Shown: piece after piece, positions 1 to 56,838 of the stretch
Position numbering within the stretch: the first letter of the stretch is position 1
Layout: the number at the start of each line of letters is the position of its first letter
Assembly: GCA_964373715.1 (NCBI GenBank)
Contig: CAYJVR010000005.1
Span: forward strand, 46,805 to 110,804
Direction: 5' to 3'
DNA length: 64,000 bases
Origin: an uncultured Planctomycetia bacterium
Lineage (GTDB): Bacteria; Omnitrophota; Gorgyraeia; 1-14-0-20-64-10
Made by a program: the position numbers and the translations under genes
Notes under the pieces: model-generated
Seen by the model: the letters and a program-made list of their open reading frames with translations, nothing else
Told to the model about the DNA's origin: nothing
Databases searched by the model: none

Positions 1-3000
1 CCTGATCCCTGTTTCCTGCGCCACCGCCACGCTCGGGTTAAGCCGGCGGGATTCGGCGACCGATTCCGGGATATCCCTCGTCATGCTGAAAACAACGGAC
101 CGGTTCACCTCTTCGGCCGGAAGGGTCAGCCGGCGGTCGGCCCAGTTGCTCCATAGGGCGGCGTGTAGGCTCTGACCGCGCGCCAGCAACGGGCTGGGAA
201 CACCGGTCGTCTGCAAAATCTGCGACAGTTTCGTCAGGTGATAAACCACCGCCCCGCCGGTCACCTCAACATAAGCGGCAAACGCTTTCTGAAGCGCGGT
301 GGCGTCGGCCGGCGAAAAGCGGGCCTGCAGAGCTTCCGGCGACAACAGTTCTCCGGCGGCCCAACGCTCCCACTCTCCCGCCGTCTCGAATTCACCCTGA
401 GAGGCAGCCAGATGGACCATCATCCCCATCACCGCGGGCTGAAGGTGTTTGGCAATGCCGATCTGGGTCAGTTTCCGGGAATCCTGCAGAGAGGCCACAA
501 ACAATTTGAACAGCAAGTCTTTCGGGATGCAGTAGCCGGTCGTCGGTCCGGCCGAATAAGACTCCCCTTCCTTGATCGCGGCGACCGGCAGGCCGCCCCG
601 CTGGTTGAACTGGAACGCGAGGTCCTCAATGTCTCCGACGCCGAGCCGGCTGACGAAATAGGCCTGCACGTTGCGCACCGCCCGAATCATCGCGGTCCAC
701 TGGTTTTCCGACACCTTCAGGTTCTCCGCCTCCTTGATGTGCCGGATCTGCGGGTTGAAGTTCATCAGCTCGTAAAACCTTTTGGCGTGCGCGGCGGCGA
801 GAACATCGGTGACGCCAACCCACTGCGGCCACACCTCGACCGAGGAACGCTCCCCTTTGCCCAGGTTGACGCGGCTGGGGGCGTAGATCAGGTGGTAGCG
901 CTTGCGCCCCCCGGTCGGACGGAAAGAACCGTCTTTCTTCTCGAGCAAGGTGCCGCTTGAATAGGCATAACGGGGATCCCCCATCGAGGCCTGAAGCTTG
1001 TTCGCGGCGATCGTCTCGCGGCGGGCCGTGGTACGGCTTAAGCCGGAGTGGTTCCTGTACCAGCGGCGCGCCCTGTCCTGCAGTTGAAGCTGGGGTCTTT
1101 GCCGGTCCAACTGGTCCAATACCCGGTGCCGCGCCGCCCACCGGACGGTGCTCTCGAGTTCCCGGCGGTAAAGCTCCGATTCCCGTATCGCCTGGGCAAC
1201 TGCCTGCGGCTGCGGGGTTCCGCCCTTGGTCAGTTGCGCCACACGGTCGGCAAGGTCCGGATCAAGCTGGTTCCTCTCCCACACCTTCGGGACCGCCTCC
1301 TGCTCAAAAGCAGCCCGGGTTCCCTGATCTTTTAAGAGGTTCTCCACCCAGTCCGTATCCGGATGGGCCGGATCAAACTGGAAAGAACCGCCGGCGGCAA
1401 CGGCGTCCGCCTCGGCCGCCTCCACTAACACAGCAAACCGCGCCACCTCCTCCTGAATCGCCAGATGATCGGAAATGACCTGTTGAATCGCCTGCTCCCG
1501 GTTCATCCCCTGGACCTGGTACTGTTCGGCAATCGGCTCGTAACCGAATTCCTGAATAACCTGCCACCCCAGCTGCTGAATCCGCTGGGCATAAGCTTGG
1601 GTCCGGCGGCGGACCTCCCCATCCAGATTTTTGGACCGGACAACGTTCTTGAGAGCCATCTCCTCTTCGAGGACCGTCTGGATGAATCCTTCAACCAGGC
1701 CCGGGGCCTCGGTAGTCAATAAGTGGAATGCCGGCAGAGGCCGGCGCCTCATCATCGCGACCGGCGCCAACCGCTCCGCCTGCGCCTGCAAATCTTTTGC
1801 AGAGGCAAGAGCCTGGGAGATGCTCTCTCGGCACTGATCCGGATAGTTTCCGCTTTCGGGAGCGCCGACCGCGCGCAGGCGCAGAGCTTCGAGCCGGTCG
1901 ATAAAATGCTGTTCGGCCCACCTCTGTTCGGTGTATCTTTCAATCTCTTCGGCCCGCCGGTCAAACTCCCGCGCCAGCCAAGCGGCTGTTAAAGATACCC
2001 GCCGCAGCAACTGCTCTCTTTCGGAGGAATTCACTTCCTGGATCGCCTGGCGGTGGGCCGCCTCCGCCGGCAGTCCCTGCTCGGTCAAAACACGCGCCCT
2101 ATCCAGCAATGCCGGAGTGCTGTAAACCACCATCTCCCGCGCCAGCGCCAGGTGCTCGGAATCCATCGTCTTTTCGATGTTCTGCGCCCAGTAATCGGCC
2201 ATCTGCCGGATCGTCTGCTCAAGACCTTCCTGATCCACCTCAAAAACCGTGACATGTTTGCCGTCCACTTCAATGGTCCGCTCATAGATAAACAGCGGAG
2301 CCGCCTCGATGATGTCGGTCGCTTCCGCCACCCAGTCGTAGCTCGGGCTCATGTAGGTGTTCTGCCCGCCCAACCGGACAAGTTTCCGCAGCGCCTCCTC
2401 CTGCTCCGGCTTTTCCTCAAGCTCGTTCCCTTTGAATTTTTCGGAACCGCTCTTCGAAGGCCTCTGCATCAAAACGCTGTAGGCGGCGGCATACGATTCA
2501 GCCCGGAGGATTGCCTCCTCCAGTTTGTTGATAGCGGCAGCCAATACTCCCGCCTCGGATGAGAATGAGGTCAAGCTCTGCTGGGCTTCCGTAAACTTAG
2601 CGGCCACATCCTGCTGGCGCGGCCGCCGGCCGACCCCTTCCCGACTTGCCTTCACCGCCCGCTCCTGGGACTGGCGAAAAACCTGCCGGGCCTGCGTGTA
2701 GAAGATATCGAGATTTTCCCGCAGCTGCTGGATGGCGCCGGCAAACTGGGTCAAGGAGATGACTTTCCCGGGCCCGTACACCTGTTGGCGGATCCGGCCC
2801 GTGCCCGGACCCACATGGGCCATGAGATCCTTCACGCGTTGAGCCGACTTCCTCAACTCCGGCTGAGCCCACACAGGAGCGGATTTAACCACAGCATCCA
2901 TTCCGGAAAGAAACTGCTCCCCTTTTGCCGCATCCAAAAGTTGTTGGGTTAACTCCACGACCTCCGCCGTTTTAAGAGCGTAACCGCTGTTTCCAAAAAG

Positions 3001-5892
3001 GAAAGCCTGGTTGCCGAAAGCCCGGCTTTCACGTCCGGCCAGCAAAACCGGGTACGGGAAATCCTCCGGAAGCCATTGTTCCCTGACGATGGCGCTCACC
3101 CTGCGGGCGTTTTCCGCTTCAACGTTCCGGTCGAAATCCCGGATCACCTGGTAGGTCGCCTGACGGCGGTCTTCGATATTCTGTTTTTCCAACGCGCGCC
3201 GGAAAGAGAGCCGGTCATACGGCAGATCAATGAGCATCTGGCCGGTCAGCCAGGAAACCCACCTGTCCCGGTAATTCCGCAGCATCTGCATCCGGCCCAA
3301 CACGTCGGCATCCGGCTCGGCATCCATCCGGTCCTCAAGGGTCAGGGTATCCACGTTGGCCAGATCACCCATCTCGGGACTGGGCAAACGGCTGGCATCG
3401 TTAAAGAAGTAGGCCCATGTGTTCCCGTGATCCACCACGGGAGAGTGGAGTACATTCAGAAGTTTTTCCTTTTCGTCCTGGGACATCTGCTGATAGAGCG
3501 CCAGCGTCAGGTGGGCCGCCTCGCGCGCGGAAAAACCGGCCGCCTGGGCAAACTCCTGAAAAAGGCCGACCGCATAAAGGACCGGACGGGCCTCATCGTA
3601 GCGGGAATCGGCCAGTTCGTCGCCGATCGTCGTGTCAAGCCGAAGCGCGGATTCCTCGTCCGTCAAATCCATGGTCATCGCGTGGTTGGCCCGAAGCTGA
3701 ATTGGAAGGCTGTCGGATTCCAATCGGTCGCGAACCCGCTGGACAACCGAAGTATCCTGATAAGCGGCCAACTTCAGGAGGCCTTGCCTGGTCCACTCAA
3801 GAACCCGGGCTGTGGCCGCCTGGTCCTGATCCTGGGCTTCAGCCGTCATCTGTAAGTCGGCAACCGTGCCGGAGGCGAAATTCAACTCAGCCGTACCGAC
3901 CAAGCGGCCGACCTGGCGCTTCGCGACCTGAAGGCCTCCGTCGGTAACGCGGGCGACTTTCGTGGCGAATCCTCTGGCCGGCTTGGTCACAAGGGTAGTT
4001 TCCTCCAAACCGCCCGTCACCGCCGAGGGCCAGATCTCCGTGTTGCCGTTCACGAAGAGTCTGCCGTCCGGCGATGCCTTCAGCATCAGTTTTCCTTTAT
4101 CCGGATCGGCGAAAAGGGGCTGCTGCGTGTCCGGATCGGTCTGGGTGATGGGAACAAGGGTCAATCCTTGAGGCGAGAAAACCGCACCGATAGGACCCAC
4201 CAATTTGAGCGTGCCGCCCCCAGTGAAACCCCGGAACCCCGGCCTCACATCGAGATAAACGGACGGCTCGACCTCCACAGTTACGCCGGCCTGCTGTGTC
4301 AAAACATGAAGCCGCTGACGGCTCTTCTGGTCCCGTGTTCTGGTGGCCCGGACAACCGCCTGGTAATCCTTGGCGGCCCCGTACTGGAGCTGATCCACCT
4401 GCAAAACGCCGAACCGGATATCGGGCTGGCTTCCGACAAAGGTCGGGATATGGGTCGCGAACATCTCAATGTTCCGCCGCTGCTGCCCGAGAAGGTCATC
4501 CCTGTCCCGGTCCACGTGTCGCAACGGCAAAGTGAGCCCGGCGGCGCGCGCGGCGGCTTTTTCAGAGAGCTTGAGTACGCCCGTGTTGAAACCAAACGGG
4601 TCGGTTCCGCTTGCCGCAACGGCCTGGTCTTCAACCTGATTGAAAACCGGCAGACCGGCAATTCCCTTCGCCGCATCCGGCTCCCGCTCCGCCTTTTCGA
4701 TAATCAGGTGCATCACCTGGCCAGACGGCAAAACAACATCCACCAGCGTGCCGCCGACCGGGGATGTCCTCGACACCTTGGCCGTGGCCACCGGCGCTAC
4801 ATCCAGATCAGCACTGGCAGAAAGCACTCGGGCGATGAATTCACCGCTGTTGAGGACCGGGTCGTCCCCGTAAAGCACAAGCCATGATTTTCCCTGCTGG
4901 ATTTTCCTCTTCTGCGCAAACTGGTAGGCCGCCTGGAAAGTGCCAAACGTGCCGTTGGGGTTGCGCAAAATAACGGGTTTATTCGTGCCCGGATCAATCG
5001 ACGTAAGAATCTTCCCGGTCTGAGGATGGAAACTGGGGAAGGTCCCCTGCGCCGTCACGTTGATGCGAACCCTCTTGGAATCAACGAAACGGCTGTTCTT
5101 CCGAATATCGTTGGCCACCGCCTCCGCGCTATCCGGAGCGTCCACCACGATCACCTCGACCCCGCGCGCATCCACAAGCCGCGCGAGCTCCGAAACCTCT
5201 TCGAGCGTCTGCACGATAGGGCTGGTCCCTGAAGGGCCTATCATCACGGTCGGTTTCTCTAGCCGGGTCAGCCTATTCAGCTGTTCCCTCAGCTCGGCCC
5301 ACAAGCTTTTCTTGAACCGGGCCCCGCCTCCTCCGGCTGCCACAACGATGACCGTATTCTCCAGGAGCTGTCTCATTTGCGCATGGCTCCAGGCGTAGGA
5401 CTGAGACTCCCCGATCGGCGTGGTCGATGGGGGGCGATACGCGGAAACATCAAGCGCCTCGATCATTTGCTGAACAGACTGCACCGGCTGATTTAAGACG
5501 ATGCTCACAAGCTGATAAAGCGTGGCTGGAGGATTGACTGGTTTGCCGGCATAATCCGCAAGCCTGGCCAAAACGGTTTTATCTGCGAGGCGGCTCAACT
5601 GATCGCGCAGACGCCTCTTATCCGACTGAGAGAAGGAGCTCCACCCCTCAATCAATTTGGAGGCGGTCAACTCCTCCAAACCAGCCACGGAGGCTGCGTC
5701 CGCCAGCCCTTGAAGGCGCAGCCTCAAATCATCTAAGCCGGCCTGGCCCTCAGGCTGCTGGACGCGAAGGGTCTGATCCCCTTTTTTCCGGTCCTCAGCA
5801 AAGGCGGGAAGAACAGGAGAGAAAATCAGCGCCTGGATAAGCACCCAGGCACTGATTTGATTAACTATATGGTTGGAACGATAAGTTTTCAT
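1..5892 (-). CDS. Giant multidomain protein, 3'-partial (start ATG at 5892; the frame stays open to position 1, so the C-terminus lies beyond the window; at least 1964 codons are present)
   Basis: I translated the minus strand by hand from the ATG at 5892. It reads MKTYRSNHIVNQISAWVLIQALIFSPVLPAFAEDRKKGDQ... and stays protein-like without any stop down to position 1, where the frame is consistent (5892/3 = 1964). It is missing from the ORF track only because it has no in-window stop. All plus-strand track ORFs in this 5.9-kb stretch are short, R/G/P-rich antisense frames. The protein has a signal-peptide-like N-terminus. Tentative motifs include a Gly-rich loop (AAGGGGARFKK) with a downstream FGFNTGVLKL segment reminiscent of UDP-sugar pyrophosphorylases (roughly 4480-5350), and a SAGPTTGYCIPKD motif near the window start. 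Confidence 0.8.
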   Translation of the reverse strand, partial: MKTYRSNHIVNQISAWVLIQALIFSPVLPAFAEDRKKGDQTLRVQQPEGQAGLDDLRLRLQGLADAASVAGLEELTASKLIEGWSSFSQSDKRRLRDQLSRLADKTVLARLADYAGKPVNPPATLYQLVSIVLNQPVQSVQQMIEALDVSAYRPPSTTPIGESQSYAWSHAQMRQLLENTVIVVAAGGGGARFKKSLWAELREQLNRLTRLEKPTVMIGPSGTSPIVQTLEEVSELARLVDARGVEVIVVDAPDSAEAVANDIRKNSRFVDSKRVRINVTAQGTFPSFHPQTGKILTSIDPGTNKPVILRNPNGTFGTFQAAYQFAQKRKIQQGKSWLVLYGDDPVLNSGEFIARVLSASADLDVAPVATAKVSRTSPVGGTLVDVVLPSGQVMHLIIEKAEREPDAAKGIAGLPVFNQVEDQAVAASGTDPFGFNTGVLKLSEKAAARAAGLTLPLRHVDRDRDDLLGQQRRNIEMFATHIPTFVGSQPDIRFGVLQVDQLQYGAAKDYQAVVRATRTRDQKSRQRLHVLTQQAGVTVEVEPSVYLDVRPGFRGFTGGGTLKLVGPIGAVFSPQGLTLVPITQTDPDTQQPLFADPDKGKLMLKASPDGRLFVNGNTEIWPSAVTGGLEETTLVTKPARGFATKVARVTDGGLQVAKRQVGRLVGTAELNFASGTVADLQMTAEAQDQDQAATARVLEWTRQGLLKLAAYQDTSVVQRVRDRLESDSLPIQLRANHAMTMDLTDEESALRLDTTIGDELADSRYDEARPVLYAVGLFQEFAQAAGFSAREAAHLTLALYQQMSQDEKEKLLNVLHSPVVDHGNTWAYFFNDASRLPSPEMGDLANVDTLTLEDRMDAEPDADVLGRMQMLRNYRDRWVSWLTGQMLIDLPYDRLSFRRALEKQNIEDRRQATYQVIRDFDRNVEAENARRVSAIVREQWLPEDFPYPVLLAGRESRAFGNQAFLFGNSGYALKTAEVVELTQQLLDAAKGEQFLSGMDAVVKSAPVWAQPELRKSAQRVKDLMAHVGPGTGRIRQQVYGPGKVISLTQFAGAIQQLRENLDIFYTQARQVFRQSQERAVKASREGVGRRPRQQDVAAKFTEAQQSLTSFSSEAGVLAAAINKLEEAILRAESYAAAYSVLMQRPSKSGSEKFKGNELEEKPEQEEALRKLVRLGGQNTYMSPSYDWVAEATDIIEAAPLFIYERTIEVDGKHVTVFEVDQEGLEQTIRQMADYWAQNIEKTMDSEHLALAREMVVYSTPALLDRARVLTEQGLPAEAAHRQAIQEVNSSEREQLLRRVSLTAAWLAREFDRRAEEIERYTEQRWAEQHFIDRLEALRLRAVGAPESGNYPDQCRESISQALASAKDLQAQAERLAPVAMMRRRPLPAFHLLTTEAPGLVEGFIQTVLEEEMALKNVVRSKNLDGEVRRRTQAYAQRIQQLGWQVIQEFGYEPIAEQYQVQGMNREQAIQQVISDHLAIQEEVARFAVLVEAAEADAVAAGGSFQFDPAHPDTDWVENLLKDQGTRAAFEQEAVPKVWERNQLDPDLADRVAQLTKGGTPQPQAVAQAIRESELYRRELESTVRWAARHRVLDQLDRQRPQLQLQDRARRWYRNHSGLSRTTARRETIAANKLQASMGDPRYAYSSGTLLEKKDGSFRPTGGRKRYHLIYAPSRVNLGKGERSSVEVWPQWVGVTDVLAAAHAKRFYELMNFNPQIRHIKEAENLKVSENQWTAMIRAVRNVQAYFVSRLGVGDIEDLAFQFNQRGGLPVAAIKEGESYSAGPTTGYCIPKDLLFKLFVASLQDSRKLTQIGIAKHLQPAVMGMMVHLAASQGEFETAGEWERWAAGELLSPEALQARFSPADATALQKAFAAYVEVTGGAVVYHLTKLSQILQTTGVPSPLLARGQSLHAALWSNWADRRLTLPAEEVNRSVVFSMTRDIPESVAESRRLNPSVAVAQETGIR

Positions 5893-5942: not shown

Positions 5943-8900
5943 TTACGCCTGCAGAGCCAAGGTCGCCCGGTCCACGAACGATTCCCAGAGGGCCAGAGAT
6001 TCCGGCAGCAGCTGGATCCTGAACAGAGCCAACAGAATCTGCTCCAGGGTGCCCGAAACCGACCGGTTCACGCCCACATCCTCCACCTGCCCGACCCCGT
6101 ACACCTGTTTCAGGTAGAAATCGGCCGCCGCTATCGCCGAATCCCGGTTCGGCGTGTTCGCCGCCGTATCGCCGATCCGGAAAATCGAGTTCTCCGAGAA
6201 GCCCATCTCGATCAGCTTCGCCTTCTCCTGCACCGTGTCCACCACGAACGCCACAGGCAACAACTGCCCGTCCGTTGTTTTCACACGGCTTAAAGCCGCT
6301 CCGATCGCCAACCCCTTGACTCCGTCCAGCGTACCGGCCATCACACCCACCGAAAGACTGGCCGTATCGGCCGACGGCAGAGATACTCTCTCCAACATCA
6401 ACTCCAAACCGGTCGGCACGTTGCTGCCGGAAATATTCGTCCGGGCGGCAACGGTCGAAAGAACCGGAGTAAAGATCTCTGTCGGCACCAGAACCGTGAT
6501 TGATTCCAAACCGGCCTGCTGCAGCTGCGGGACGAGGCCGTTGGGCCCTATCACTCTGGGCTGTATCCCCTCGATAGCCGGTTTGCCTCCCTGAGCCGGA
6601 GCGCCGCGGAAATTGGCCCAGGTATCCTGGACAAACGCGTTCTGCTCGGCCGGCGGATGTATCTCGGCGTAATCGGGGATAATCTTTCTTCCGCGGAAAT
6701 CATCCTTCGCCTTGGAAGACTCTATATCCTTCGCCGCCTGCTCCTCCAGCTTCACAAACTCGGCCAGCGCATCGCGCAAAGTGATCCCCGGACGCTCCTG
6801 CGCCAGGGTCTGCCGCTGATGCTCCCATGCCGGATCCGGCGAAGCCTGCGTCAACAGGTTGGCCACCTGAGCCAACTGGCCGGCCTTGGCCAAAGCATCT
6901 ACCCGGTCATAGACCCCGCGCAACGCGTAATGCAGGATAAACCGGCTGTAGGCGTCAATGGCAAGCTGAACGGCATCTGCATCTGTTTTCATGTAGTTTT
7001 TGCCGAGACCCGGAATACCGGGAGCCGTTACCGGCTGTTGATTTTCACCCTCAGGCGTCCAGGTCTGCGGCGTATCGAGATAATATCCGGAAACCGGCGC
7101 CGGCTTGCCCTGGACCGCCTGCAGACGGGCCCTTGCGTCCTTCATAAGATCAACCGTATCCTGACGGAAAACACGGAAATCAAACTGATGCCGCGTCGCC
7201 TTGTTCCGGGAAATATACTTCCCTTCGTTCCGCTTGACGGCAAACAGGTTATCCATGAGAACCCACGCCGGCACAATCTCGTTAAAAGCAGGCGCAAGAC
7301 CGGGCAGGGTTTCTCCCGGGGTATTGATCAGCGCAAACGGGAACGCCACCGTCTGCGGCAGTGTTTTGACGCTCGTCGCAATCAGCAGGTAAGGAGACCC
7401 CGAGAAATTCGACGGATACTTGATATCCACGCTCAAGCCGAAGAAGGTCCCTTCGCCCGGCAAAATCTCCTGGTCCGGTTCCTTCCCTGTGTGGTTCGAT
7501 CCGACATTGGCGCCGTAGCCGATATTCCCCTTTCCTTCAGGCCAAACCGCAGCGATGAGCAACGCCTGATGGTGGAACCCGACAAACGGCCCCACGAGCG
7601 CGGCGGTGACTTCCCCTTCCGCCACCCCGGTGTTCGGACCAAGCACCGAACCGGTCACAAAACCACCCCGTTCGGCATGCGAATGTTCCAGCAAAACGCT
7701 CTCGCGCACCTGGGCGGCAGACTCCACGGAGGAACCCCACTGGATAACCGAGCTTTCCACAATCGCTCCATCGGTGATTTTTGTCTGTTCCGTGTTGCTG
7801 CTTAAAATCGTCGTGTCGCGGACGGCAGCGGCGCCGATGATCTGGGCCCCTTCGCCCACATACACGTTGGACACATCCCGGCTGTTGACGATCCGGGCTC
7901 CCTTTTCCACGATGCCGACCGGAGAAGCCGCGGCCGCCACATACTGCGCGTGCGCCGCGTTGTAGTCGGCCTGGAGGGCCTGATGCTCACGGCTGCGCAC
8001 CACAGCATCCCGGTCCGCCGCAGGAATCTGAGCCGGTTCCACCCCGTTGTACTTCGCGAGCAGTCCTTCATTCACTCCCGAAGTCGCCAAACGGGCCGCC
8101 GCGTCCAACAACATGTCGGCGAACGGCCGGATGATCCGACCAGCACCCTTCACGCCGACCGTTTCAGGGCCGACGGCGATCTTCGTACCGAGGCCGAACG
8201 ACGTCGGCTTCCCGGAGGCGGTCACATCGCCGTTCACGATAATGACGTTCTCCTTCACCACCTGATTAGACACCACAGAGTTGCCGTAGATCAACGGGTT
8301 CGAACCGATCCTGCTGTTGATGACCGTCGAGTCGTAAATTCCGAGCGGCAGGTTCACGCCGGGCTTAACCTCGGCAGTCCCCGTTCCGATGGACCAGATC
8401 TCCACGTCCCCGAAGAACCGGTTGTCCCGAATTTTGGTCAAATCTGTGGACGGTACAACCCGGACGCGGCTCCAATCCTCCGCACTGTTGCCCTGAGACT
8501 CCATCTGGGAAATCTGCGCCGCCGACAACTGGACCGGAGGAACGGCCGACTGCCACTGGCCGGAAACCACCTGCTGGACAGCTTGGAGGAACGGAGAACC
8601 GGCAATCGCCTCCTTGATCGCCTTCACCACGTCGTACTTCTCCTCCAAACCGGCTTGAAACCGATCCTTGATTTCTTGATCCAGACCTTTTTGATGGAGG
8701 GTGGCCATTGGAGTATTTACATCCGCTACAGCCAAAACCACCCGTGGTGCTTGGTTATTCAGTTGAAACGCTTCGGCAAAACCAACCGTACCCTCCATCT
8801 GGAGAGCAGTCAAAACATCCTGAACCAGTTGACCAGGAGCAGGTCTAACGTCTGCGACAACATACATCTTGGATCGCTGAGGATCTCCCGGAAACTCGGT

Positions 8901-11900
8901 GACCACCGTTTGAACTCGGGCCTGGCCTGGAACCGACTGAAGCACGGAGTAGCCTTGGTAGGCTTCAATAATCCCTTCCACTTCTTCATCCGATAATCGG
9001 GACCCGAATTGTGTATGGACGCCGGCTTCGACCGGAGGAACCGCTAAGGCCGTACGGATTGCATCTGCCACACCCAACTCCTGAAGTCTCTGGACCGATT
9101 CCCTCATATCCAAAAGCTCATAGGCAACTCGCATTCGCCCCTCAATCGGCTCTTGAGGATAGTTGTCCGACACAATGTCCTCTATGCTCAATCCTGCATT
9201 CGAGACCACCGTCCCGATGTCCCGGAGTAGTCCACTACGGTCCCACGTGGCGATGGCGATGACAGCGTGTTGGGGATTTCGGCTGTCCGGGTACATCCGA
9301 ACCTGCGGCTGATTGGTTTCAAAAACACCCAACCCCATTTCGAACAAATCGCCCAGAGCTCCTTCCGGAAGTTGTCGGAATGCCGCACCGCGAAGTCTTT
9401 CTCCAAGGAAATCAGCAGGAACCTGAATAAGCCCCGTCGGTGGAATGGCAGGGCCCGGACCCGGGCGGAATGTGGAAACCGGTTCCTGAGGCCCTTCCTC
9501 CAACGCCTCATCCCGGAAATGGCCGAACCTCTCCGCCAAAATTGCCCCAAAGGCCGCCACATTGAAATTCCCCAACGCATCTGTCGCATTCGGAACTGCA
9601 AAAATCCCTTCCGGATCCTGCAGTTCCGGGTTGTTGACCTGCTCTTCAGTAATCGGAGCTAGTTTTACCGGGCCAGCCTCGATAATGGAGCGCCGAATTA
9701 GATTGGTCTGACCTGGACCCGGCTTTTGCACGTTGTCATTGAGCGTAACCAGGAGAAATCGTCCATTCCTGGAGTCATACACTTGAGCATCTGTGTTCGT
9801 AGAGTCGGCAAAGTCGCTGTCTGTCATCACAAAGAGAACCAGGGTATCGTTGTCGAGTGGATATTTTGGGTTCACGCCATACTTAAGCCGATAAGCCGGA
9901 TCATCGGTATTCTCCGAATACTTCTTTTTATTCGGATCCACTGCTGCCAGAGGGCCATGCCACGCCGAGTCGTTCAACTGCGCCTCAGCAAAGATCCCCA
10001 GCATCGACAGAACCCTGGCTAACTCTTTCGCTGCCTCATAGGCCTGGCCGCCGCCGATAATATGAACCTTCCGATATTGGCTTAACTTCCGCAGGAGGTC
10101 TTCCAGGCGTTTTGCGCTGACTCTGTCCGCAAGCACCTCGGCGACCATAGCCGGTACTGTCCGCAAAGAATTCTGGAAATCGGCCGTGTTGCGGCCCAGC
10201 AACTCCCCCATCCTGGCCCCAACCGTTAAGAGAGCCAGATAGGTTAAGGGGTAAACGCTCACGTCATCCACGTCCGCTTCAAGAGAAAGATGGGCCACAC
10301 GGGTCGGATTGAACTTGCTGTCTCTCAAGCCCGAGACATCATCCGAGATCGTGACCAAGGGAACGCCCCGATCCCGCAAACGCTGTGCCAGCGAGATCAT
10401 TCGCTCCTCCGACCTCTCATCCTGCTGTCGAGGCACCTCTGCGCCTGTCCGCAGCTTAAAAGGAAAGGCCACCTGCGGCAGTTGAGCATTCGCAGGACCT
10501 CGGTTCCGGCCTCTGGAAATGAGGAAGACCACCGTGCCTTCATCCACCAGATCCTCAATCCCGCGATCGGTGCTCCGGAAAACCTTAATGTTCTCAATCC
10601 CAGACAAGAGCAACTCGGGCTGGGTGGCCTTAAGTTGCAGGCCGGAAAGGAGTTTCTCCGGTTCTTTCGGATCCGGGAGAAATGAGCTGGGATCCACAAT
10701 GTACTCTCGGCCGTTGAACGAAACCGTTTGAACCGCTTGGGTGACGGAAACCTCTTTGGTCTCCGGCTCTTTGCCTTGAGCGTAAGGGTTCAAGTCCGGT
10801 GCGTAACGGATGGTGTACCTCTTTTCCGCCGAATTATAGGAAGCGCGATAATACCAACCTCCAATCCGGACTCGGACACCTTTCGTATACAACTCCGATC
10901 GAACACCGGAGACGACAGGCTCTGTCCAGCCAAAGGGCCCTACGGCTGCCCCAGCGGCATACTGCGTGGCCTCTTCATCGGTCACGATGACAACCCTCGC
11001 TCTGGGCTCAGGAGCCCCTGCCGCTTTGCTGAACCGCTGGAGAAGCTGCCCAGCTCGCGTCTTATCTTCCGGATGGACCAGAACCCCTTCTGGCCCAGTC
11101 CATCTCTCCAACGCCATATTGAGCAAGAGGGGCAGACGCGAGATCGACTGCTGCCGGGGGGTCTGAAGAGCCGGCCAGGCTCGAGCGAGACCGCGCTGAT
11201 AGTTTCTGAATGAGGCCTGAGACCCTTCCACCTGCCCGGCTTGTTCCTGTGTCGTCACATACCGGGCGGCAGAAGCCTGAATCAGCTCTTCGCGGGAACG
11301 GGCGCCGCTGACCACAACAGACTTCGCTAAGTTTCGCGAGTTGTCGATCTGCGAATCGGTGATTCCATGGGCCCGTGCCAATGCCAGCGAAAACCGAAAG
11401 TACAGCGGTGCGTCTACCAAACCCTGGAGAGTCAAACGAACCCTTGGAACAATCACAAGGTCGATCTTTCCTTGTTCCTGAAGCTGGATCAGGCGCGCCA
11501 GATGCCTGTTATCCTCCGCAAAGGTCTGAACCACAACCTGAATCCCGGCCTGGGTGACCTCATCAATGGCTCTGATAAACTCGTCCAACCGTCCAGGATC
11601 GGTCATGTTGAAGATCGTCGCGACACGCTCCGCCTCGGGCACCTTGGGGTCCGCCGTCCTTAAAAGGAGATTTCGCCAGCTTTCATCCCCGATATCAGCC
11701 GCCTTCCCAACGAGCCAGGCAATTTCTTCTGCCTTGAGTTCTCCCTCAATGTAAATCGGATTGTTCCGGCTGCCGATGACAAGAACCTTCTGCCGATCCT
11801 TCCAGGCACGAGCCACGCGATTCACCAGAGACTCCACATCTTCCCGCGTATCGAGGACCCGGTTCCGGTCCTCCTTCCCCGGTTCGACAATCAGGCCGTA

Positions 11901-14900
11901 CACATGGTCCACCACTTCCCACAGATTTTGAACATAGGCCTTTCGCTCCGCATCCAGCTTCGGATCGCCGCGAAACTGGCTCATCTGAACGCCCAACAAG
12001 GAAAGAGAATATAGGACAGACTCAAAACCCTTTGTTGTTGCCACGGAAGACTCCGGACCGGACTTCACATCAATCACCCCGGCGCTTTCTTTCGAAAGCC
12101 GGCCCATATCCGACCCGGTCTTGCCGGTGACGGACATCATCGACACCCCTTCACTGGAAAACCGGTTGAAAAGTTTGACCGTGGAGGCGGTGCTCCCGGA
12201 CCAGCTCATTCCGACTGCCAAATCAGTCTTCGGATTGAGCTTGATCCCCCGGTTCTGAATATCGACCGGGTCGTAGACAAGTATCTCCACGCCCGGTAAA
12301 AGCTCCCGGAACAACTGCTCGGCCACCATGGCATCCCGCCAGGAGCTTCCCACACCGATCAAGAAGATCCTTCTTAAGTTCTCTAATTTCTGCCCAAAAC
12401 GGTCTCTCAAATAACCCGCGTTCAACGTCGGGATGTTGACCGAAACCGGCTGGCCCTGCTGATTGAAAGCCATGTACGAAACGGCTTGATCCAGAAGGAT
12501 CTTCGGAATCTCATCTATGTGCATCTCCATAAAGGTCCGATAGATTCCCTTGACCCCAAGTTCTGGAGAAACTGTCTCTTCTACCTTCTTCGCCTCCTTC
12601 GTCAATTCCTTTTCGGTCAGCGGAGAGCCGTCGAGGTGGGTGACGTCCACATTCAGGCGGGCAGCGCCCTGCTCATCCAGCCGCCGGGTCACCCGGGCAA
12701 ATTTGTTCAGCTCTTTAAGATGGTAAACATCCACCTTGTATTGTTTTCGGATCGGATCCGCCCTCTGCTCATATTCCCGCAGCGCATGGGTGACCTCCTG
12801 GGCATACTGCTGCGCATTGATCCCTCCTTGGCTGGGAGGTAACTGGCGAAGCTCCCGCAAATGCTCCAGGGTTTTCAACAACTGCTGCTGCATCTCGGAC
12901 AGTTTCCTCGCCGCCTCAGCCACCTCCGGCGCAGGGAAAAGGGCTATCCCGGCCGCATAGTCCGACGTCACAAGAATCCGTTCACCGACCATCACGATAT
13001 CGACCGGCCGGTCATGGCTGACCACGTAAGTCATCAAGGGGCTGTGTAAACTTGTCGCATTCACCCCAAGCTCTGAACCGTCCTCCATCTCCAGGGTTGC
13101 TACACGGAAAGCCACTTCATCCGGATTGATCTCGCGTCGGCCCTGAGCGCGCAAATTCTCCACCACTCTGTTCCAGACCTGGGCCCTGTTGAACTCGTTG
13201 CGGTCCTGGTTTAACTGGCCAAGGAGATTGAGTTTCACCATCAGGCCATCCGCTTCTACCCGGCCGGCCGCCTTATCCATCTCAAACTGCTTCGCCACAT
13301 AGTCCCAATGGACCACAATCGTCCGGGTGTCCGTGACAATGCTGTAGCGGGCTTTTGTCCCAGTCGGTGTTGTCTCCTCTGCCCAGTAATACCCCTCGAA
13401 ATCTTTGAAATACTGCGCTTCCGGTCCCGACTGCTGGAACGCTTCCATATGTTCCTTCCTCAAGGCGCTGTTGATCGTCCCCTTGACCTGGCCGTTGTGG
13501 ACAACGACCCTGCTCTTCGTGTTGTGGGGATGTGCATTCCATCGGCTCGGGTCGCCGGTCATCGCCCAACGGCCGTGCCCGACCACCATCTCTCCCAGGA
13601 GCCGTACCGTGAACTCGGTGACCGCCCCAAGGCTGTAACCCCGGCGATAAGTCCCCCGCTGCGGCTGGGTGGGATTGGAAACCCCTGTATCCACCTGCTG
13701 CTGACGGATCTGGAGAATCCTCTGGTAGACCTTATCCGGCAGGAGGGGAGCCTGGATCACTTGACCGTTCTCGACGATATCCACCTTCTGGGTATGGGCC
13801 CAGTCATGAAACCAGTCGACCAAAGCGGCAAAGGCATGCCCGGGCATATTCAGGTTCCGTTCACGCTTCCAGAAGTCAAACCAATTCTTCCCGCGACCCG
13901 GTACCCGCTCTTCAAACCGCCGCTTCACCTCGGACAACCACTCCGGATGAGCCTGAAACAGGCCGATCAAGCCCCCCTGCATTCGGAAAACATGGCGGGT
14001 CGGATCCACATTGTAATCGGGTGGAACCACAAGCCAGCGGCCCACAAGAAAGTCCATCACCTCATCCCATCGTTCATGCTCCTTTGGCGTCAGCTGCCCG
14101 GAGAGCGCCCGACTGGAGAGGAGGTCATAAACTCGCATGATCTCCTGTGTCTTACCGGGAATCAAACCTTTAGCTTCCTGGAGAGCGTGGGAGAGTTCTG
14201 CCCGGAGAAACAACTGGACAAATTCGGGTGTCAAATCAAACAGACGGCCGATTTCCCGAACAAGATCCGGAAGGTCGTTATGCCGAATCAAGACCTGATC
14301 GCCGGCCCAGACACCGCCGACTCGCCCGACTTGAACGCTGGCTCGTCCTTCAAAAAGATCTCCGAGTGTCGTCCTTGTCAGATCGTAAAGAGGCCAGCGG
14401 CCTGTTCCAATTTGTTCTGAAGTGGGCACGAATTCCATCAGCCCCTCTTCACTCAAAAGCTTAAAACCTTGTAGACGCGCCTCGTGAACCGCCGAAGGCA
14501 GTAGCCACTCTCTTTCTCGGCGCCGCGCTTCTGACCAAGCCCCGGCTGCCTCCTGCCGGTACTGTTCCTTCTGCTGGGGAGAAATCCCTTGTTGACGCGA
14601 ACGGGCCCAGACCAGGCGGCCTCTGTTGATGCTCTCCTGTATTTGCTGTAGCAGATCATGCTGTGGTTGATAGGGGTTTCCTGACATCGTCTTATCGGCA
14701 TGGGGAAATGTCTCTGGGTAGATCGGATAATTGTAAAGATACTGAATCAGAGTACCCGGCTCACCATCTCCCTGCCCCTGGATGTCCATGCCCGCCTTCA
14801 CCACGCGCGGTCCCTCCTCCGTCCACACCAACAAACCGGTGTTGTCCGGAGCCCGGTACTTGAGGCGCAATACCGCGTCCAGAATTGCGCGAATCCCTCC

Positions 14901-16056: not shown

Positions 16057-17877
16057 CTAATTCTTTGAAGGTGTGCCGACATCAACCCCGGCCGCCTCGA
16101 TGAAAGCCACTGGCCGCATTTCGCCCGCCACAGACCCCTTGGACTGGCGGTCTTCTTTATTCTCAGCCCGCAGATCCGGCCCGGGCACTGCCGGGATGCC
16201 GAGCTTCTTCCGGTACGGCTCCGACATAGGAACGTAGGTTTCCTTGAGGACACGGTGGTACTTTTCCGTATCCTCCGCGGTCACCTTTCCCACCTTGGGG
16301 GCGATGACAGCGTAGGAAACTTTCTTGTCCTTGAAGATCCTTTCGAAAACGGGGGTATGGAAACCACCGGCGATCAGGACCGCCACCGGCACCTTGAATT
16401 CCTGTATCCGGGCAAGCGCGTTCTCCACCATGGCTATATCCCGTTTCCGGGCCACTTCATAGAAAGAGCCCATCGCCGGTCTGGCGGCGGAGAGCGGCCC
16501 CGGGATAAGCGTGAAGGTAAAAGGAGGGTTCTGCTTCTCGCCCAAAGAGCGGAGGGTGTCGGCCCACTTGTCCGGCTTGAACTCATCCTTGTGGCTCGCG
16601 TAATAATCGTAGGTCTCGGGCGTCAGCTTAAGCTCCAAAAGGTCGGCCAAAACTCCCACATCTTTCGCCGTAAGGGCCAGAGATTTCTGTTCTTTCGTCT
16701 TGAAATAAGCCCCCTTGACCCGGTCGCTGAGTTTCTCCACCTCGTTGAAGAGAGACGCGTGGTCTATCTCTTCGAAAACGCCGAGATAAGCGATGTACTT
16801 CATTAAAACAGGATACTCAGCCGCTTGTTCAGGCTTCACGTAAACCTTCAAATAGCCGTAAAAGGTGGACGGGCTGATCAACCCCTGTTTGAGCTCTAAA
16901 CTCTGTTTGAGCAGACGATCCGCCTCCGCCTGTGAAAGATTTTTGGACAGCGCGTCGAGAAACTTCACCCGCTCCGTTTCAATCTTTTTAAAATCCAGCT
17001 CCCCTTCCAGCTTGGTGGCGGTAAGAAACCTTTGCAGGTTCGGAAACTCCTCCTGCTTCATCTCCACCTTAAGCGTGCCGGCCTCCTCCGCGAGCATCTC
17101 ATAATGTTTCGAGAGAGGAACCCGGCCGGCCTGGACTTCCAGTTCCCTGTTCTCGAGGTCCTTCACCTCTTTCGGATAAAGCTTTTCCTTCAAGAGGGCC
17201 ACCGCCTGCTGGAACCCCTTGATCGCCTGCCGGGCATTGCCTTGCACCTTCTCGACCGTAAAGAAGGCCTCCATGTTCTGGTCGTAAAGCTCCGGTTTCT
17301 CAACACCGTAAACGGTGAACGGATAATCGGTGGTCAGGTCCAGATAGTTCTCGCCGGAAATCTTGCCGCTCTTTAAAAACTCCTCCGCTACCTGTTTCCG
17401 TTTCTCAAGCGGGGCATAGGCCCGCATATAGGACAAGGAGTCGTTTCGGGAACCTCCCTCCACGAGGATCAGCGCAAGGCCGTGGATGGCGACCAGGTGC
17501 TCCAGCATGCCGGCCAGGTTCTTCTGCGCCTCATAATTGGCGTGAGCATCCTGAATGTGGATAATCAAAGGTTCCCGGGCGCTGTAGGTCTCCTTGATGC
17601 TTCCGTACTGGACAGGAATCCGCAGGGTATCCAACGTCAGGGGGATCTGTTCCTTGGGAGCCTGAATCGGCGCTTGAACGGTGATCTGCGAAGCGGCGGA
17701 GGGATCCTCGATCTTGCCGTGCTGTTCCCAAAAGGTTTTCTTAGGAGAAGAGTCTTCAGCGGCGAAAGAAGTTCCGTCCAGAGGCAAGCCGGCGCAGAGG
17801 GTTATCCCTAAGACAAAGGCGGGAATTCGTTTCCCCCACTCCATTCGGGGATTGATGGATTGGGCTGATTTAGTCAT
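16057..17877 (-). CDS. Secreted hypothetical protein (606 aa). First gene of the operon that continues into the two giant ORFs; the true start is probably the internal Met at 17844 (MEWGKRIPAFVLGITLCAGLPL, signal peptide)
   Basis: Long ORF with a signal-peptide-like N-terminus. Same strand as the giant gene, with only a 37-nt gap. I recognise no family. Slightly more AT-rich than its surroundings. Confidence 0.7.
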   Translation of the reverse strand: MTKSAQSINPRMEWGKRIPAFVLGITLCAGLPLDGTSFAAEDSSPKKTFWEQHGKIEDPSAASQITVQAPIQAPKEQIPLTLDTLRIPVQYGSIKETYSAREPLIIHIQDAHANYEAQKNLAGMLEHLVAIHGLALILVEGGSRNDSLSYMRAYAPLEKRKQVAEEFLKSGKISGENYLDLTTDYPFTVYGVEKPELYDQNMEAFFTVEKVQGNARQAIKGFQQAVALLKEKLYPKEVKDLENRELEVQAGRVPLSKHYEMLAEEAGTLKVEMKQEEFPNLQRFLTATKLEGELDFKKIETERVKFLDALSKNLSQAEADRLLKQSLELKQGLISPSTFYGYLKVYVKPEQAAEYPVLMKYIAYLGVFEEIDHASLFNEVEKLSDRVKGAYFKTKEQKSLALTAKDVGVLADLLELKLTPETYDYYASHKDEFKPDKWADTLRSLGEKQNPPFTFTLIPGPLSAARPAMGSFYEVARKRDIAMVENALARIQEFKVPVAVLIAGGFHTPVFERIFKDKKVSYAVIAPKVGKVTAEDTEKYHRVLKETYVPMSEPYRKKLGIPAVPGPDLRAENKEDRQSKGSVAGEMRPVAFIEAAGVDVGTPSKN

Positions 17878-26001: not shown

Positions 26002-26025
26002 TTCGGAAAACCTCCCCGGCGTTCA

Positions 26026-56819: not shown

Positions 56820-56838
56820 CCTTCCCCCAACCTCGGCG

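Follow-up and report, generated by a model that had tools for sequence, protein, structure and literature searches.

Identification of a giant gene at the edge of the window

The first 5892 nucleotides of the 64,000-nt stretch of DNA analysed here (the window) contain no long ORF in the list that accompanied the sequence, while the minus strand of the same region reads as ordinary protein, thus raising the question of whether a gene is present there and what it might encode. Translation from the ATG at position 5892 confirmed the frame of at least 1964 codons claimed by a previous reading based on the sequence only, and no stop codon was found over the 1964 codons on re-translation. Given the base composition of the region, the chance of such an open frame is about 10^-28.9. 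Three codons before the ATG the frame is interrupted by a TAG, so that this ATG is the first possible start. The frame crosses position 1 of the window, and it was skipped because the listing leaves out ORFs crossing either end of the source.

An exhaustive protein search recovered a protein of 4734 aa (P0008), whose residues 1-1964 are identical throughout to the window ORF; extension past position 1 thus yielded the complete product, with 2770 further codons beyond the window. At the nucleotide level, the region is 100% identical over 5892 nt to positions 10001-15892 of contig L004, and the gene was found on independently assembled contigs from three sequencing runs and also in NCBI. Orthologs with 47-68% identity occur in six MAG loci, and they span more than 4000 aa in six genomes. 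All six ortholog loci are on genome contigs of Omnitrophota MAGs, two of which are labelled Planctomycetia; the proteins P0001 and P0014 carry the name Candidatus Omnitrophica. The unlisted ORF is a real gene of an uncultured Omnitrophota bacterium, and its detection combines an edge effect of ORF listing with a correct motif-based guess.

The gene is the third of a co-directional run encoding proteins of 606, 3358, 4734 and 3375 aa on the contigs that extend the window. The operon order previously proposed, from the 606-aa gene through the 3358-aa gene to the giant ORF, agrees with these contigs, and a gap of 50 nt separates the 4734-aa gene from the stop codon of the 3358-aa gene. The genes concerned are the following:

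nt 1..5892, minus strand: N-terminal 1964 codons (41%) of the 4734-aa gene, by stop-free translation and identity to P0008 residues 1-1964
nt 5943..16019, minus strand: upstream gene, 3358 aa, with a GlmS-like double SIS at residues 1129-1570 and a weak ACT match
nt 16057..17877, minus strand: first gene of the run, 606 aa, without family assignment
nt 34525-36516: 663-aa gene, paralog of the DUF4954/left-handed beta-helix module at residues 2462-3135 of the 3358-aa gene

The left-handed beta-helix of the neighbouring giant is similar to the C-terminal part of GlmU, and the gene following the 4734-aa gene carries PGM, ROK and GHMP modules. Adjacent genes for chitobiose/GlcNAc uptake include a GH94 phosphorylase, ROK, NagA-like and NagB-like proteins and an ABC transporter with carbohydrate-binding domains. 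A tRNA search of the window was negative.

Direct searches with the window fragment were poorly informative. Pfam and NCBIfam, run on the 1964-aa fragment both entire and as four sub-fragments, returned only a 12-bit match to PF00984; phmmer against PDB sequences gave matches at chance level only; and a word-indexed protein search found one homolog, the source protein not being returned. No function could be assigned to residues 632-1660 and 2030-3600, about half of P0008.

A module with the fold of UDP-sugar pyrophosphorylases

The sequence-only reading had compared three short motifs with those of eukaryotic-type UDP-sugar pyrophosphorylases, and a fourth with the catalytic motif of UDP-sugar 6-dehydrogenases. 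All were in place in the translation (AAGGGGARFKK, residues 185-195; YGDDPVL, 341-347; FGFNTGVLKL, 433-442; SAGPTTGYCIPKD, 1780-1792). The first three fall within a single module:

nt 4033..5445, minus strand: UDPGP-fold nucleotidyltransferase module, residues 150-620 (model, Foldseek and family profile)
nt 5308-5340, minus strand: Gly-rich loop AAGGGGARF
nt 4852-4872, minus strand: YGDDP motif
nt 4567-4596, minus strand: FNTG motif
nt 4450-4479, minus strand: RRNIEMFATH, residues 472-481

The profile PF01704, which had been suggested for the window translation, gave no match at E ≤ 10. The pyrophosphorylase similarity was borne out by a model of residues 150-620 with pLDDT 92.7 and pTM 0.92, for which the top 50 Foldseek matches in the PDB all belonged to the UDPGP family (UAP, UGP and USP; E 4e-19 to 2e-16, probability 1.00, TM 0.52-0.61), and by a 17-sequence family profile that retrieved UDP-GlcNAc pyrophosphorylases from the PDB at E 1.6e-11, the best matches being UAPs, then USP and GlmU. 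PF01704 itself matches three of the 17 family members (best E 2.2e-7). The UDPGP-like family to which the module belongs counts 26 representatives among 1.84 billion cluster representatives; phosphohexomutase domains accompany the module in seven of 12 other proteins sharing it, and others of the 12 hold GHMP/galactokinase, LbH or complete UGDH modules.

Nine columns are invariant in the 17-sequence alignment, including G188, G190 and R192 of the Gly-rich loop, K213 and E476. The loop (residues 185-193) aligns with AGG(S/Q)GTRL of UAPs, the window copy having GGGGARF, with Ala in place of Thr, where the aligned UAPs have GG(S/Q)GTRLG; N436 of the FNTG motif aligns with the UAP Asn. In RRNIEMFATH an Asn replaces the Lys of the K-x-E-x-F motif, whose counterpart in mouse UAP is the Lys of KMEKF; most of the family retains this Lys, the closest homolog P0001 (RKLERFLTH) among them. 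In AGX1, the Lys of K-x-E-x-F-x-D is a phosphate contact. The module shares with UAP1/AGX1 (PF01704 family, which also includes UGPase and USP) the fold, over about 410-470 aligned positions, and the succession of motifs, which begins with the Gly-rich loop and ends with K-x-E-x-F-x-D. It differs in being only 14-18% identical, in having about 15 inserted residues between the Arg of the Gly-rich loop and the conserved Lys, and in its context, UAP1/AGX1 being a free-standing cytosolic enzyme and the window copy one part of a protein of 4734 aa that starts with a signal-like leader. Both profile and model support the assignment of residues 150-620 as a divergent UDPGP-fold module (a pyrophosphorylase core with N- and C-terminal domains on either side), closest to eukaryotic-type UDP-GlcNAc pyrophosphorylases. 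The module may act as a sugar-1-phosphate uridylyltransferase.

The middle region and a dehydrogenase-like core

Downstream of the pyrophosphorylase-like module, the following features were recognised:

nt 913..3999, minus strand: conserved region, residues 632-1660, kept across seven orthologs
nt 3004-3036, minus strand: conserved block GRESRAFGNQA
nt 964-1671, minus strand: helical bundle, residues 1408-1643 (AlphaFold model of residues 1375-1964)
nt 388..894, minus strand: UDP-glucose/GDP-mannose dehydrogenase central-domain-like module, residues 1667-1835 (hhalign; PF00984 sub-threshold)
nt 703-729, minus strand: AENLKVSEN, with K1726 and N1730 invariant
within nt 517-555, minus strand: GYCIPKD, with C1788, K1791 and D1792 invariant

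The conserved region had no Pfam or PDB profile match. In the AlphaFold model of residues 1375-1964, built from a seven-sequence alignment, residues 1408-1643 are all helical, with block pLDDT mostly 70-89, and a fold search with this bundle gave no significant match. The dehydrogenase-like part of the same model has pLDDT below 50, again without a match in the fold search.

The dehydrogenase similarity emerged from profile-profile alignment. Against E. coli Ugd and WecC, hhalign gave 81.6% with eight sequences, 91.1% with 13 and 93.9% when canonical Omnitrophota UGDH modules were added, the latter two alignments having E of 1e-6 to 1.5e-7 over 123-141 columns. PF00984 was the commonest Pfam match, always sub-threshold (E 0.23 for the window fragment; five of 13 members, best E 0.042). 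HMMER searches of PDB sequences, with profiles built from the module or from the complete orthologs, did not reach UGDH, hhalign alone doing so, and protein searches with the module found seven fragmentary relatives in all. Ugd 135-286 aligns to residues 1667-1835 with a PEFLREG-type strand, the AE..K...N helix and the GGYC.PKD cysteine loop. K1726, N1730, C1788, K1791 and D1792 are invariant in seven orthologs of 47-68% identity, and the invariant K, N, C and D align with the K-x3-N and Cys-loop motifs of UGDH. Residues ~1667-1835 are thus probably homologous, judging from these alignments, to the central domain of UDP-glucose dehydrogenase.

The remaining parts of a canonical enzyme (PF03721/PF00984/PF03720 in Ugd and WecC) were not detected. 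Neither the NAD-binding Rossmann domain (Ugd/WecC 1-134, hhalign ≤0.5% in each 900-residue segment of the ortholog alignment, covering P0008 600-4734) nor the C-terminal UDP-binding domain (probability ≤0.3% along the same residues) was found; no GxGxxG Rossmann domain was detected in P0008, and the helical bundle precedes the module. Of the earlier dehydrogenase claim, the Cys-loop stands, within a stretch of about 165 residues aligned to the UGDH central domain at 91-94%; with the NAD-binding and C-terminal domains not found over residues 600-4734, dehydrogenase activity is not established. P0008 appears to hold a reduced core, in comparison with the complete UGDH modules of the related Omnitrophota giants P0023 and P0025.

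Two candidates were rejected. A split Rossmann domain formed by LLAGRESRAFGNQA, ATDIIEAAPLFIYE and PAFHLLTTEAPGL, the last just upstream of the helical bundle, had no hhalign support, and a weak match to nitrile hydratase alpha was carried by a duplicated chain and treated as chance. Separately, RVHFFGTYKGDEDEAPPPDVRYS in P0008, just beyond the window edge, resembles by eye the hhhGhxFKxxxDDxRxS start of the C-terminal domain, the structure model of the module being poor.

Modules beyond the window

Past position 1, P0008 carries ATP-grasp-like modules and, at about residues 3900-4550, a GHMP sugar-1-kinase module of the galactokinase/GalNAc-kinase type. An ortholog profile matched the PDB entries 9ulx, a GHMP protein (E 2.6e-14), human GalNAc kinase 2a2c (7e-7) and galactokinases; Pfam GHMP_kinases_N scored 21.9 bits against a cutoff of 22.3, and motifs II and III are present as LPSGKGLSSSSA and AAGLGG. 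Searches of P0008 showed no adhesin, CBM or hydrolase domain. Its 4734 residues are tiled by unrelated enzyme domains of four types, UDPGP-like, UGDH-core-like, ATP-grasp and GHMP kinase. Acting together, an anomeric sugar kinase of the GHMP type and a UDPGP-type pyrophosphorylase would turn free (N-acetyl)hexosamine into UDP-sugar, as in the HexNAc salvage pairs human GALK2 with UAP1/AGX1 and Bifidobacterium NahK with a uridylyltransferase. P0008 has both module types and differs from these pairs in that a single polypeptide carries the two, with about 3500 residues between them.

A common leader and a peptide at module junctions

Three further features lie on the minus strand:

nt 5797..5892, minus strand: predicted Sec-type signal peptide, residues 1-32 (hydropathy scan and inspection by eye)
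nt 5671..5682, minus strand: first G-L-E-E, residues 71-74, end of the N-terminal leader
nt 4000..4011, minus strand: second G-L-E-E, residues 628-631, module junction

The N-terminus of P0008 has a basic n-region, the hydrophobic stretch ISAWVLIQALIFSPVLPAF and A-F-A before E33, the cleavage position being placed by eye, and it looks like a Sec signal peptide. Strongly hydrophobic 19-mers are confined in P0008 to this leader and to one Gly/Ala-rich stretch near the C-terminus. The elements AW.LIQAL, TLRVQQ and AGLEE recur in the orthologs and in the 3375-aa neighbour, and residues 1-32 are, by this comparison, part of a leader common to the giants of the locus. If the leader is a truly cleaved signal peptide, the periplasm would be an implausible place for enzymes depending on UTP, ATP or NAD.

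Among the 4-mers in the giants of the locus, GLEE shows the strongest over-representation (18 observed versus 0.77 expected, 23-fold), and it is absent from 17 non-giant ORFs (8212 residues). It occurs at module borders and flanks the pyrophosphorylase-like module where this is internal (P0011, P0023, P0029 and P0030). Homology to P0001 stops at residue 610, and homology to giants of other genomes starts at 624-628, at the second G-L-E-E. The position of the peptide is conserved among orthologs, after linkers of variable length; L013 and L014 have it in degenerate form or not at all, and more divergent family members lack it. Its codons vary, so that selection acts on the peptide, and a role as DNA-level recombination site is ruled out by the same varied usage. 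The pyrophosphorylase-like module itself resides in different genes in different genomes, the modules being distributed differently among adjacent genes.

A putative tethered amino-sugar pathway and its alternatives

P0008 is a chain of enzyme-derived modules with GLEE-bearing linkers between them. On balance, we lean towards a reading in which these modules form, together with those of the neighbours, a tethered amino-sugar pathway, possibly exported. The GHMP kinase would produce hexosamine 1-phosphate, which the pyrophosphorylase-like module would convert to UDP-sugar, while the neighbouring giants, with their mutase, isomerase and acyltransferase-like modules, would supply or draw on the same pool, with substrates coming from the adjacent chitobiose/GlcNAc uptake genes. 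The leader would direct export, after which the proteins might act at the surface or inside of a host or prey cell, a role that has been proposed for the giants of Omnitrophota in general; this is the least certain step. Both the order of the steps and the substrates are inferred from family names. The putative distributed sugar-nucleotide pathway suggested by the sequence-only reading is strengthened by modules outside the view of that reading: the GHMP sugar-1-kinase and the ATP-grasp modules of P0008 itself, and the PGM, ROK and GHMP modules encoded by the gene that follows.

The same arrangement could come from a polyprotein, in which a protease cuts the giants at the G-L-E-E linkers and frees ordinary-sized enzymes such as pyrophosphorylase, kinase and mutase; gene boundaries would then be irrelevant, and modules could therefore move between adjacent genes. 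We judge this unlikely. The enrichment of GLEE in the giants and its absence from the non-giant ORFs, its location at module borders and on both sides of internal pyrophosphorylase-like modules, and its kept position with varied codons are all in accordance with processing, and cleavage of giants was called possible, with no cleavage points known, by West-Roberts et al. 2023 (bioRxiv 10.1101/2023.11.21.568195). However, no protease was identified in the locus, the peptide is degenerate or missing in some members, as described above, and a conserved linker or docking peptide would produce the same pattern. An extended version, in which the giants are exchangeable enzyme cassettes bounded by an (A/G)-G-L-E-E processing or docking signal, and an exported polyprotein delivers an amino-sugar/UDP-sugar pathway, possibly to a host cell, is likewise doubtful in our opinion.

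Decayed modules serving as sugar or nucleotide-sugar binders of an exported adhesin or effector, for prey attachment and cell-wall attack, would account for the signal-peptide-like leader, the loss of the K-x-E-x-F lysine in the window pyrophosphorylase-like copy, the dehydrogenase-like core devoid of a detectable NAD domain and the long helical spacers, and would fit the published view of Omnitrophota giants in adhesion and cell-wall digestion (10.1101/2023.11.21.568195). Such a non-catalytic scaffold appears quite unlikely, since the residues aligned with UAP and dehydrogenase signatures are invariant across family members of 22-53% identity, the GHMP kinase motifs are intact, related giants hold complete UGDH and PGM modules, and the lack of adhesin, CBM and hydrolase domains in P0008 also argues against it. 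As for an assembly chimera or a pseudogene with an accidentally open frame, nothing apart from the lack of Pfam matches in the window fragment speaks for it, and it is already refuted by a chance of 10^-29, by the identical gene on contigs from three different sequencing runs and in NCBI, by the orthologs spanning more than 4000 aa in six genomes and by a module that folds at pLDDT 92.7.

Relation to published giants and significance

Giants of this phylum were catalogued by West-Roberts et al. 2023 (bioRxiv 10.1101/2023.11.21.568195), with adhesion and cell-wall digestion as proposed roles, and by Nielsen & Lui 2026 (bioRxiv 10.64898/2026.06.07.730766), who described class 1 'multi-enzyme metabolic clusters' in Omnitrophota, a sugar-metabolism Pfam community with PGM and ROK, and TM helices or a signal peptide in 94% of long proteins; P0008 is therefore not a new kind of system. 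It shares with the Omnitrophota multi-enzyme giants the phylum, the many enzyme domains per polypeptide, the PGM/ROK sugar content and the carbohydrate import genes nearby, and may correspond to them also in the N-terminal signal peptide or TM segment, having one hydrophobic N-terminal segment followed by an A-x-A site. It is small at 4734 aa, the published giants in focus ranging from 10,000 to 147,155 aa. Term searches of the 2023 and 2026 preprints for module names and cleavage points found neither the UDPGP-like module nor UDP-sugar dehydrogenase, GHMP kinases or points of cleavage mentioned. The occurrence of GLEE at module junctions and the relocation of the pyrophosphorylase-like module may be new.

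With a family alignment and a structure model, much of the 'dark' sequence in the giants of Omnitrophota can be assigned. If GLEE proves to serve in processing or docking, it would provide a practical rule to cut giants into modules for structure prediction, an obstacle described as unsolved in the 2023 preprint (bioRxiv 10.1101/2023.11.21.568195), and a handle on how multi-enzyme proteins are assembled and reshuffled. If the cassette reading were true, bacterial giant proteins would have their first candidate for a code that marks cleavage sites or junctions.

Complete gene behind the open frame

Translation of the minus strand at window positions 1–5892 gave 1964 codons without a single stop, a run whose chance probability, from the regional base composition, is about 10^-28.9. 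An in-frame TAG lies three codons 5' of the ATG at 5892, which is thus the first possible start, and 50 nt separate this ORF from the stop codon of the 3358-aa gene (5943–16019). The giant ORF proposed by the sequence-only reading, running unlisted off the window start, was therefore confirmed, no stop being found on re-translation. The omission has a trivial origin: the supplied ORF track leaves out ORFs running off the source ends, and nothing more is needed to explain the absence of this one. The four motifs quoted in that reading fall at residues 185–195, 341–347, 433–442 and 1780–1792.

The sole homolog retrieved by word-indexed protein search was P0001, a 2110-aa protein from a Candidatus Omnitrophica MAG, covering residues 1–610 of the window ORF only (48% identity). 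Exhaustive HMMER search of 1.84 billion cluster representatives with the alignment of the N-terminal module found 26 relatives, the best being P0008 (4734 aa), identical to the window ORF over its residues 1–1964. The P0008 gene is present on contigs from three different sequencing runs and on a 122-kb contig at NCBI. Contig L004 matches the window at 100% identity across the 5892 nt and at 9999/10000 positions over the next 10 kb. These matches therefore extend the sequence upstream of position 1 to a complete gene of 14.2 kb. A spacer of 34 nt separates it from the next gene, which encodes 3375 aa with GHMP-kinase, phosphohexomutase (PGM_PMM_I/II) and ROK domains; the co-directional run is ordered 606, 3358, 4734 and 3375 aa.

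Pyrophosphorylase-like module

The window copy of the module resembling UDP-GlcNAc pyrophosphorylase (UAP; residues 150–620) gave no Pfam or NCBIfam match, even at E ≤ 10, PF01704 included. By contrast, the profile of its family (A5; 17 members, 22–53% identical to the window copy) matched eukaryotic-type UAPs among the PDB sequences:

T. brucei, 4bqh: E 1.6e-11
E. histolytica, 3oc9: E 3e-10
Mouse, 1vm8: E 1e-9
C. albicans, 2yqc: E 4e-9
Human AGX1, 1jv1: E 1.5e-8

GlmU and UDP-sugar pyrophosphorylase were matched more weakly. The alignments with UAPs begin at the Gly-rich loop and end at the K-x-E-x-F-x-D motif. The AlphaFold2 model of residues 150–620, built with A5, had pLDDT 92.7 and pTM 0.92, and its best 50 Foldseek matches in the PDB were all UAP, UGPase or USP (E 4e-19 to 2e-16, 410–539 alignment columns, TM 0.52–0.61). 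Moreover, 3/17 family members reached PF01704 unaided (best E 2.2e-7). On this evidence from profile, model, fold matches and the three PF01704 members, the earlier guess of UDP-sugar pyrophosphorylase motifs in the ORF is largely right, despite two reservations about the window copy: an Asn at the lysine position of K-x-E-x-F (RRNIEMFATH), and GGGGARF in the Gly-rich loop where the aligned UAPs have GG(S/Q)GTRLG.

Dehydrogenase-like module

For residues about 1667–1835, the earlier guess of a UDP-sugar dehydrogenase proved half right. The window fragment gave a single 12-bit match to PF00984 (E 0.23); among 13 members this was the commonest Pfam match, yet always sub-threshold (5/13, best E 0.042). 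Few homologs were found (six genome loci and, in the protein database, seven fragments, one of them short), with the block SENQWTA..R..RNV.A.FV.RLG.GD.EDL..QFN.RGG...KE.E.Y..GPT.GYCIPKD.LFKLF nearly invariant among them. A homolog of 935 aa, P0004, is recorded as a partial sequence under the rotifer Brachionus plicatilis; since homologs are otherwise confined to Omnitrophota, it is probably a bacterial sequence inside the rotifer assembly.

HMMER profiles of the module and its orthologs did not reach UDP-glucose dehydrogenase (UGDH) structures in the PDB. By hhalign against E. coli Ugd and WecC, residues 1667–1835 aligned with Ugd 135–286, with a probability of 81.6% using 8 sequences and 91.1% using 13, 92.6% against the central domain alone, and 93.9% once two canonical UGDH modules (from P0023 and P0025) were added. 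Residues K1726, N1730, C1788, K1791 and D1792, invariant across seven orthologs, fall on the K-x3-N helix and on the GGYC-x-PKD loop in the alignment with Ugd; their counterparts in UGDH have a catalytic role, as in the S. pyogenes enzyme. Neither the NAD-binding domain (Ugd 1–134) nor the C-terminal domain (Ugd 290–388) was found in P0008 residues 600–4734, searched in overlapping chunks (hhalign probability ≤0.5% for each). A confident helical bundle was modelled directly N-terminal of the module; the module itself had pLDDT <50, too low for a fold test. The central-domain alignment and the invariant residues point to what is probably a genuine but reduced UGDH relative, not to be filed as a dehydrogenase. 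In contrast, the UGDH modules of two related giants that also carry the UAP-like module, P0023 (5034 aa, residues 422–700) and P0025 (4525 aa, residues 1310–1565), align with Ugd and WecC over GxGxxG, GGYC(I/V)PKE and the C-terminal domain.

Remainder of the protein

The profile of seven full-length orthologs (A8) matched GHMP sugar kinases at profile positions 3301–3596, and an ATP-grasp enzyme, in the PDB:

9ulx, AbGHMP: E 2.6e-14
2a2c, human GalNAc kinase: E 7e-7
1s4e, 2cz9 and 1pie, galactokinases: E about 1e-3 to 2e-4
7wac, cyanophycin synthetase (ATP-grasp): E 0.018

Pfam matches in P0008 were GHMP_kinases_N (4122–4194, slightly below its cutoff) and ATPgrasp_YheCD (3688–3787), and GHMP motifs were found in the kinase module. 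Residues 632–1660 and ~2030–3600 are well conserved among orthologs and gave no family match with A8 against the PDB. The ~1000-residue region between the two enzyme-like modules, left without assignment by fold and family searches, holds strongly conserved blocks: GRESRAFGNQA (window 3004–3036), PLFIYERT (~2290–2330) and PAFHLLTTEAPGL (~1690–1740). Beyond the window, at P0008 residues ~2960–3260, blocks such as AKGSAESGARNFKRFD and LLEPNVGIGLWPN are ATP-grasp-like by eye, so that this part looks like a second, very divergent ATP-grasp, undetected by the profile searches. A hydropathy scan of P0008 gave the N-terminal segment and a Gly/Ala-rich stretch inside the kinase, and nothing else.

Module relocation and the GLEE peptide

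The UAP-like module is missing from the start of all six orthologous giants. In five, the match to P0008 sets in at its residue 624–644; in the sixth, L013, where the sequence further upstream is masked, it sets in at residue 1024. In three cases the module and its leader stand at the N-terminus, each time in another gene of the locus:

Window, 4033–5892, minus strand: start of the P0008 gene
L009, 19362–21263: start of the downstream gene (57% identity)
L012, 133–1932: start of the upstream gene, encoding P0001

The break point of P0008 homology is a G-L-E-E peptide (residues 628–631). PGM, LbH and GHMP modules are likewise distributed differently among the genomes. In the window, GLEE occurs at:

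4000–4011, minus strand: window ORF
5671–5682, minus strand: window ORF
3358-aa protein: residues 62 and 2457
2437-aa protein: residue 66
1244-aa protein: residue 69
2374-aa protein: residues 110 and 2154

GLEE is the most over-represented 4-mer of the locus giants (18 occurrences where 0.77 are expected, 23-fold) and is absent from the 17 ordinary window ORFs (8212 residues). L004 and the orthologs also carry it, sometimes as G-M-E-E; G[LM]EE is found in 2–6 copies in most giants, against 0.1–0.4 expected, in a single copy in each of two window giants, and not at all in L013 and L014. The six locus giants and P0001 each have one GLEE 55–110 residues from the N-terminus, after a hydrophobic leader, and internal UAP-like modules are flanked by it on both sides (P0011, P0023, P0029, P0030 and others). 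Its position is conserved in orthologs after linkers of variable length, and its codons are varied. We read GLEE as a putative module-junction peptide, for which a cleavage site, a docking element and a favoured linker are all candidates.

The leaders encoded at window 5892, L004 24240, L009 ~6870, L011 and L012 have a common order of basic residues, (S/C)AW(I/V/L)LIQAL(L/I), TLRVQQ and AGLEE. Generic signal peptides are not known to have sequence in common, and these shared leaders suggest a specific recognition or anchoring function.

Genomic neighbourhood and possible pathway

The 3358-aa protein contains a GlmS-like SIS domain pair (TIGR01135, 152 bits, partial), a weak ACT match and, at residues 2462–3135, a DUF4954/left-handed beta-helix module 40% identical across 685 residues to a free-standing 663-aa gene (34525–36516), this module being therefore both fused and solo in the window. 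The giant-gene run is preceded on its 5' side by genes for a GH94 phosphorylase, a ROK protein, an amidohydrolase, a glucosamine-6-P isomerase-family protein, several CBM proteins, and ABC-transporter components fused to CBM30 or to a solute-binding protein. The unusual ABC fusions (24709–28284, minus strand) are a 430-aa permease with an N-terminal CBM30-like domain and a 752-aa protein joining a solute-binding protein and a permease domain; they adjoin the GH94, ROK, amidohydrolase and isomerase-family genes.

Among 12 other proteins with a UAP-like module, phosphohexomutase was found in seven, GHMP/galactokinase in two, and LbH and a Pfam-recognisable UGDH in one each. By its composition, this module set is what the interconversion of free hexosamines, their phosphates and UDP-sugars would require; to this extent the distributed pathway of the sequence-only reading is plausible.

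Three further large ORFs (2437, 1244 and 2374 aa) lie at 45815–63963 on the minus strand and have no Pfam match. Their proteins have paralogous regions in common (26–48% identity), including ~240 C-terminal residues of the 1244- and 2374-aa proteins, and one GLEE each near the N-terminus. Hydrophobic segments number two in the 1244-aa and four in the 2374-aa protein, with none found in the 2437-aa protein.

Relation to published giants

Omnitrophota giant genes have been described in association with carbohydrate import systems, with no known cleavage points in their proteins (West-Roberts et al. 2023, bioRxiv 10.1101/2023.11.21.568195). A catalogue of 916 long proteins, 94% of them with TM helices or a signal peptide, defines 'multi-enzyme metabolic clusters' as one class and also a domain community for sugar metabolism that includes PGM and ROK (Nielsen and Lui 2026, bioRxiv 10.64898/2026.06.07.730766). 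By term search, UDPGP/PF01704, UDP-sugar dehydrogenase/PF00984 and GHMP kinases are unmentioned in both preprints, and cleavage in the latter; no indexed paper was found connecting Omnitrophota with UDP-GlcNAc pyrophosphorylase. Multi-enzyme giants are thus already known in Omnitrophota, and the window protein fits and belongs to that class; what may be new are the junctions marked by GLEE and the shift of modules from one adjacent gene to another.
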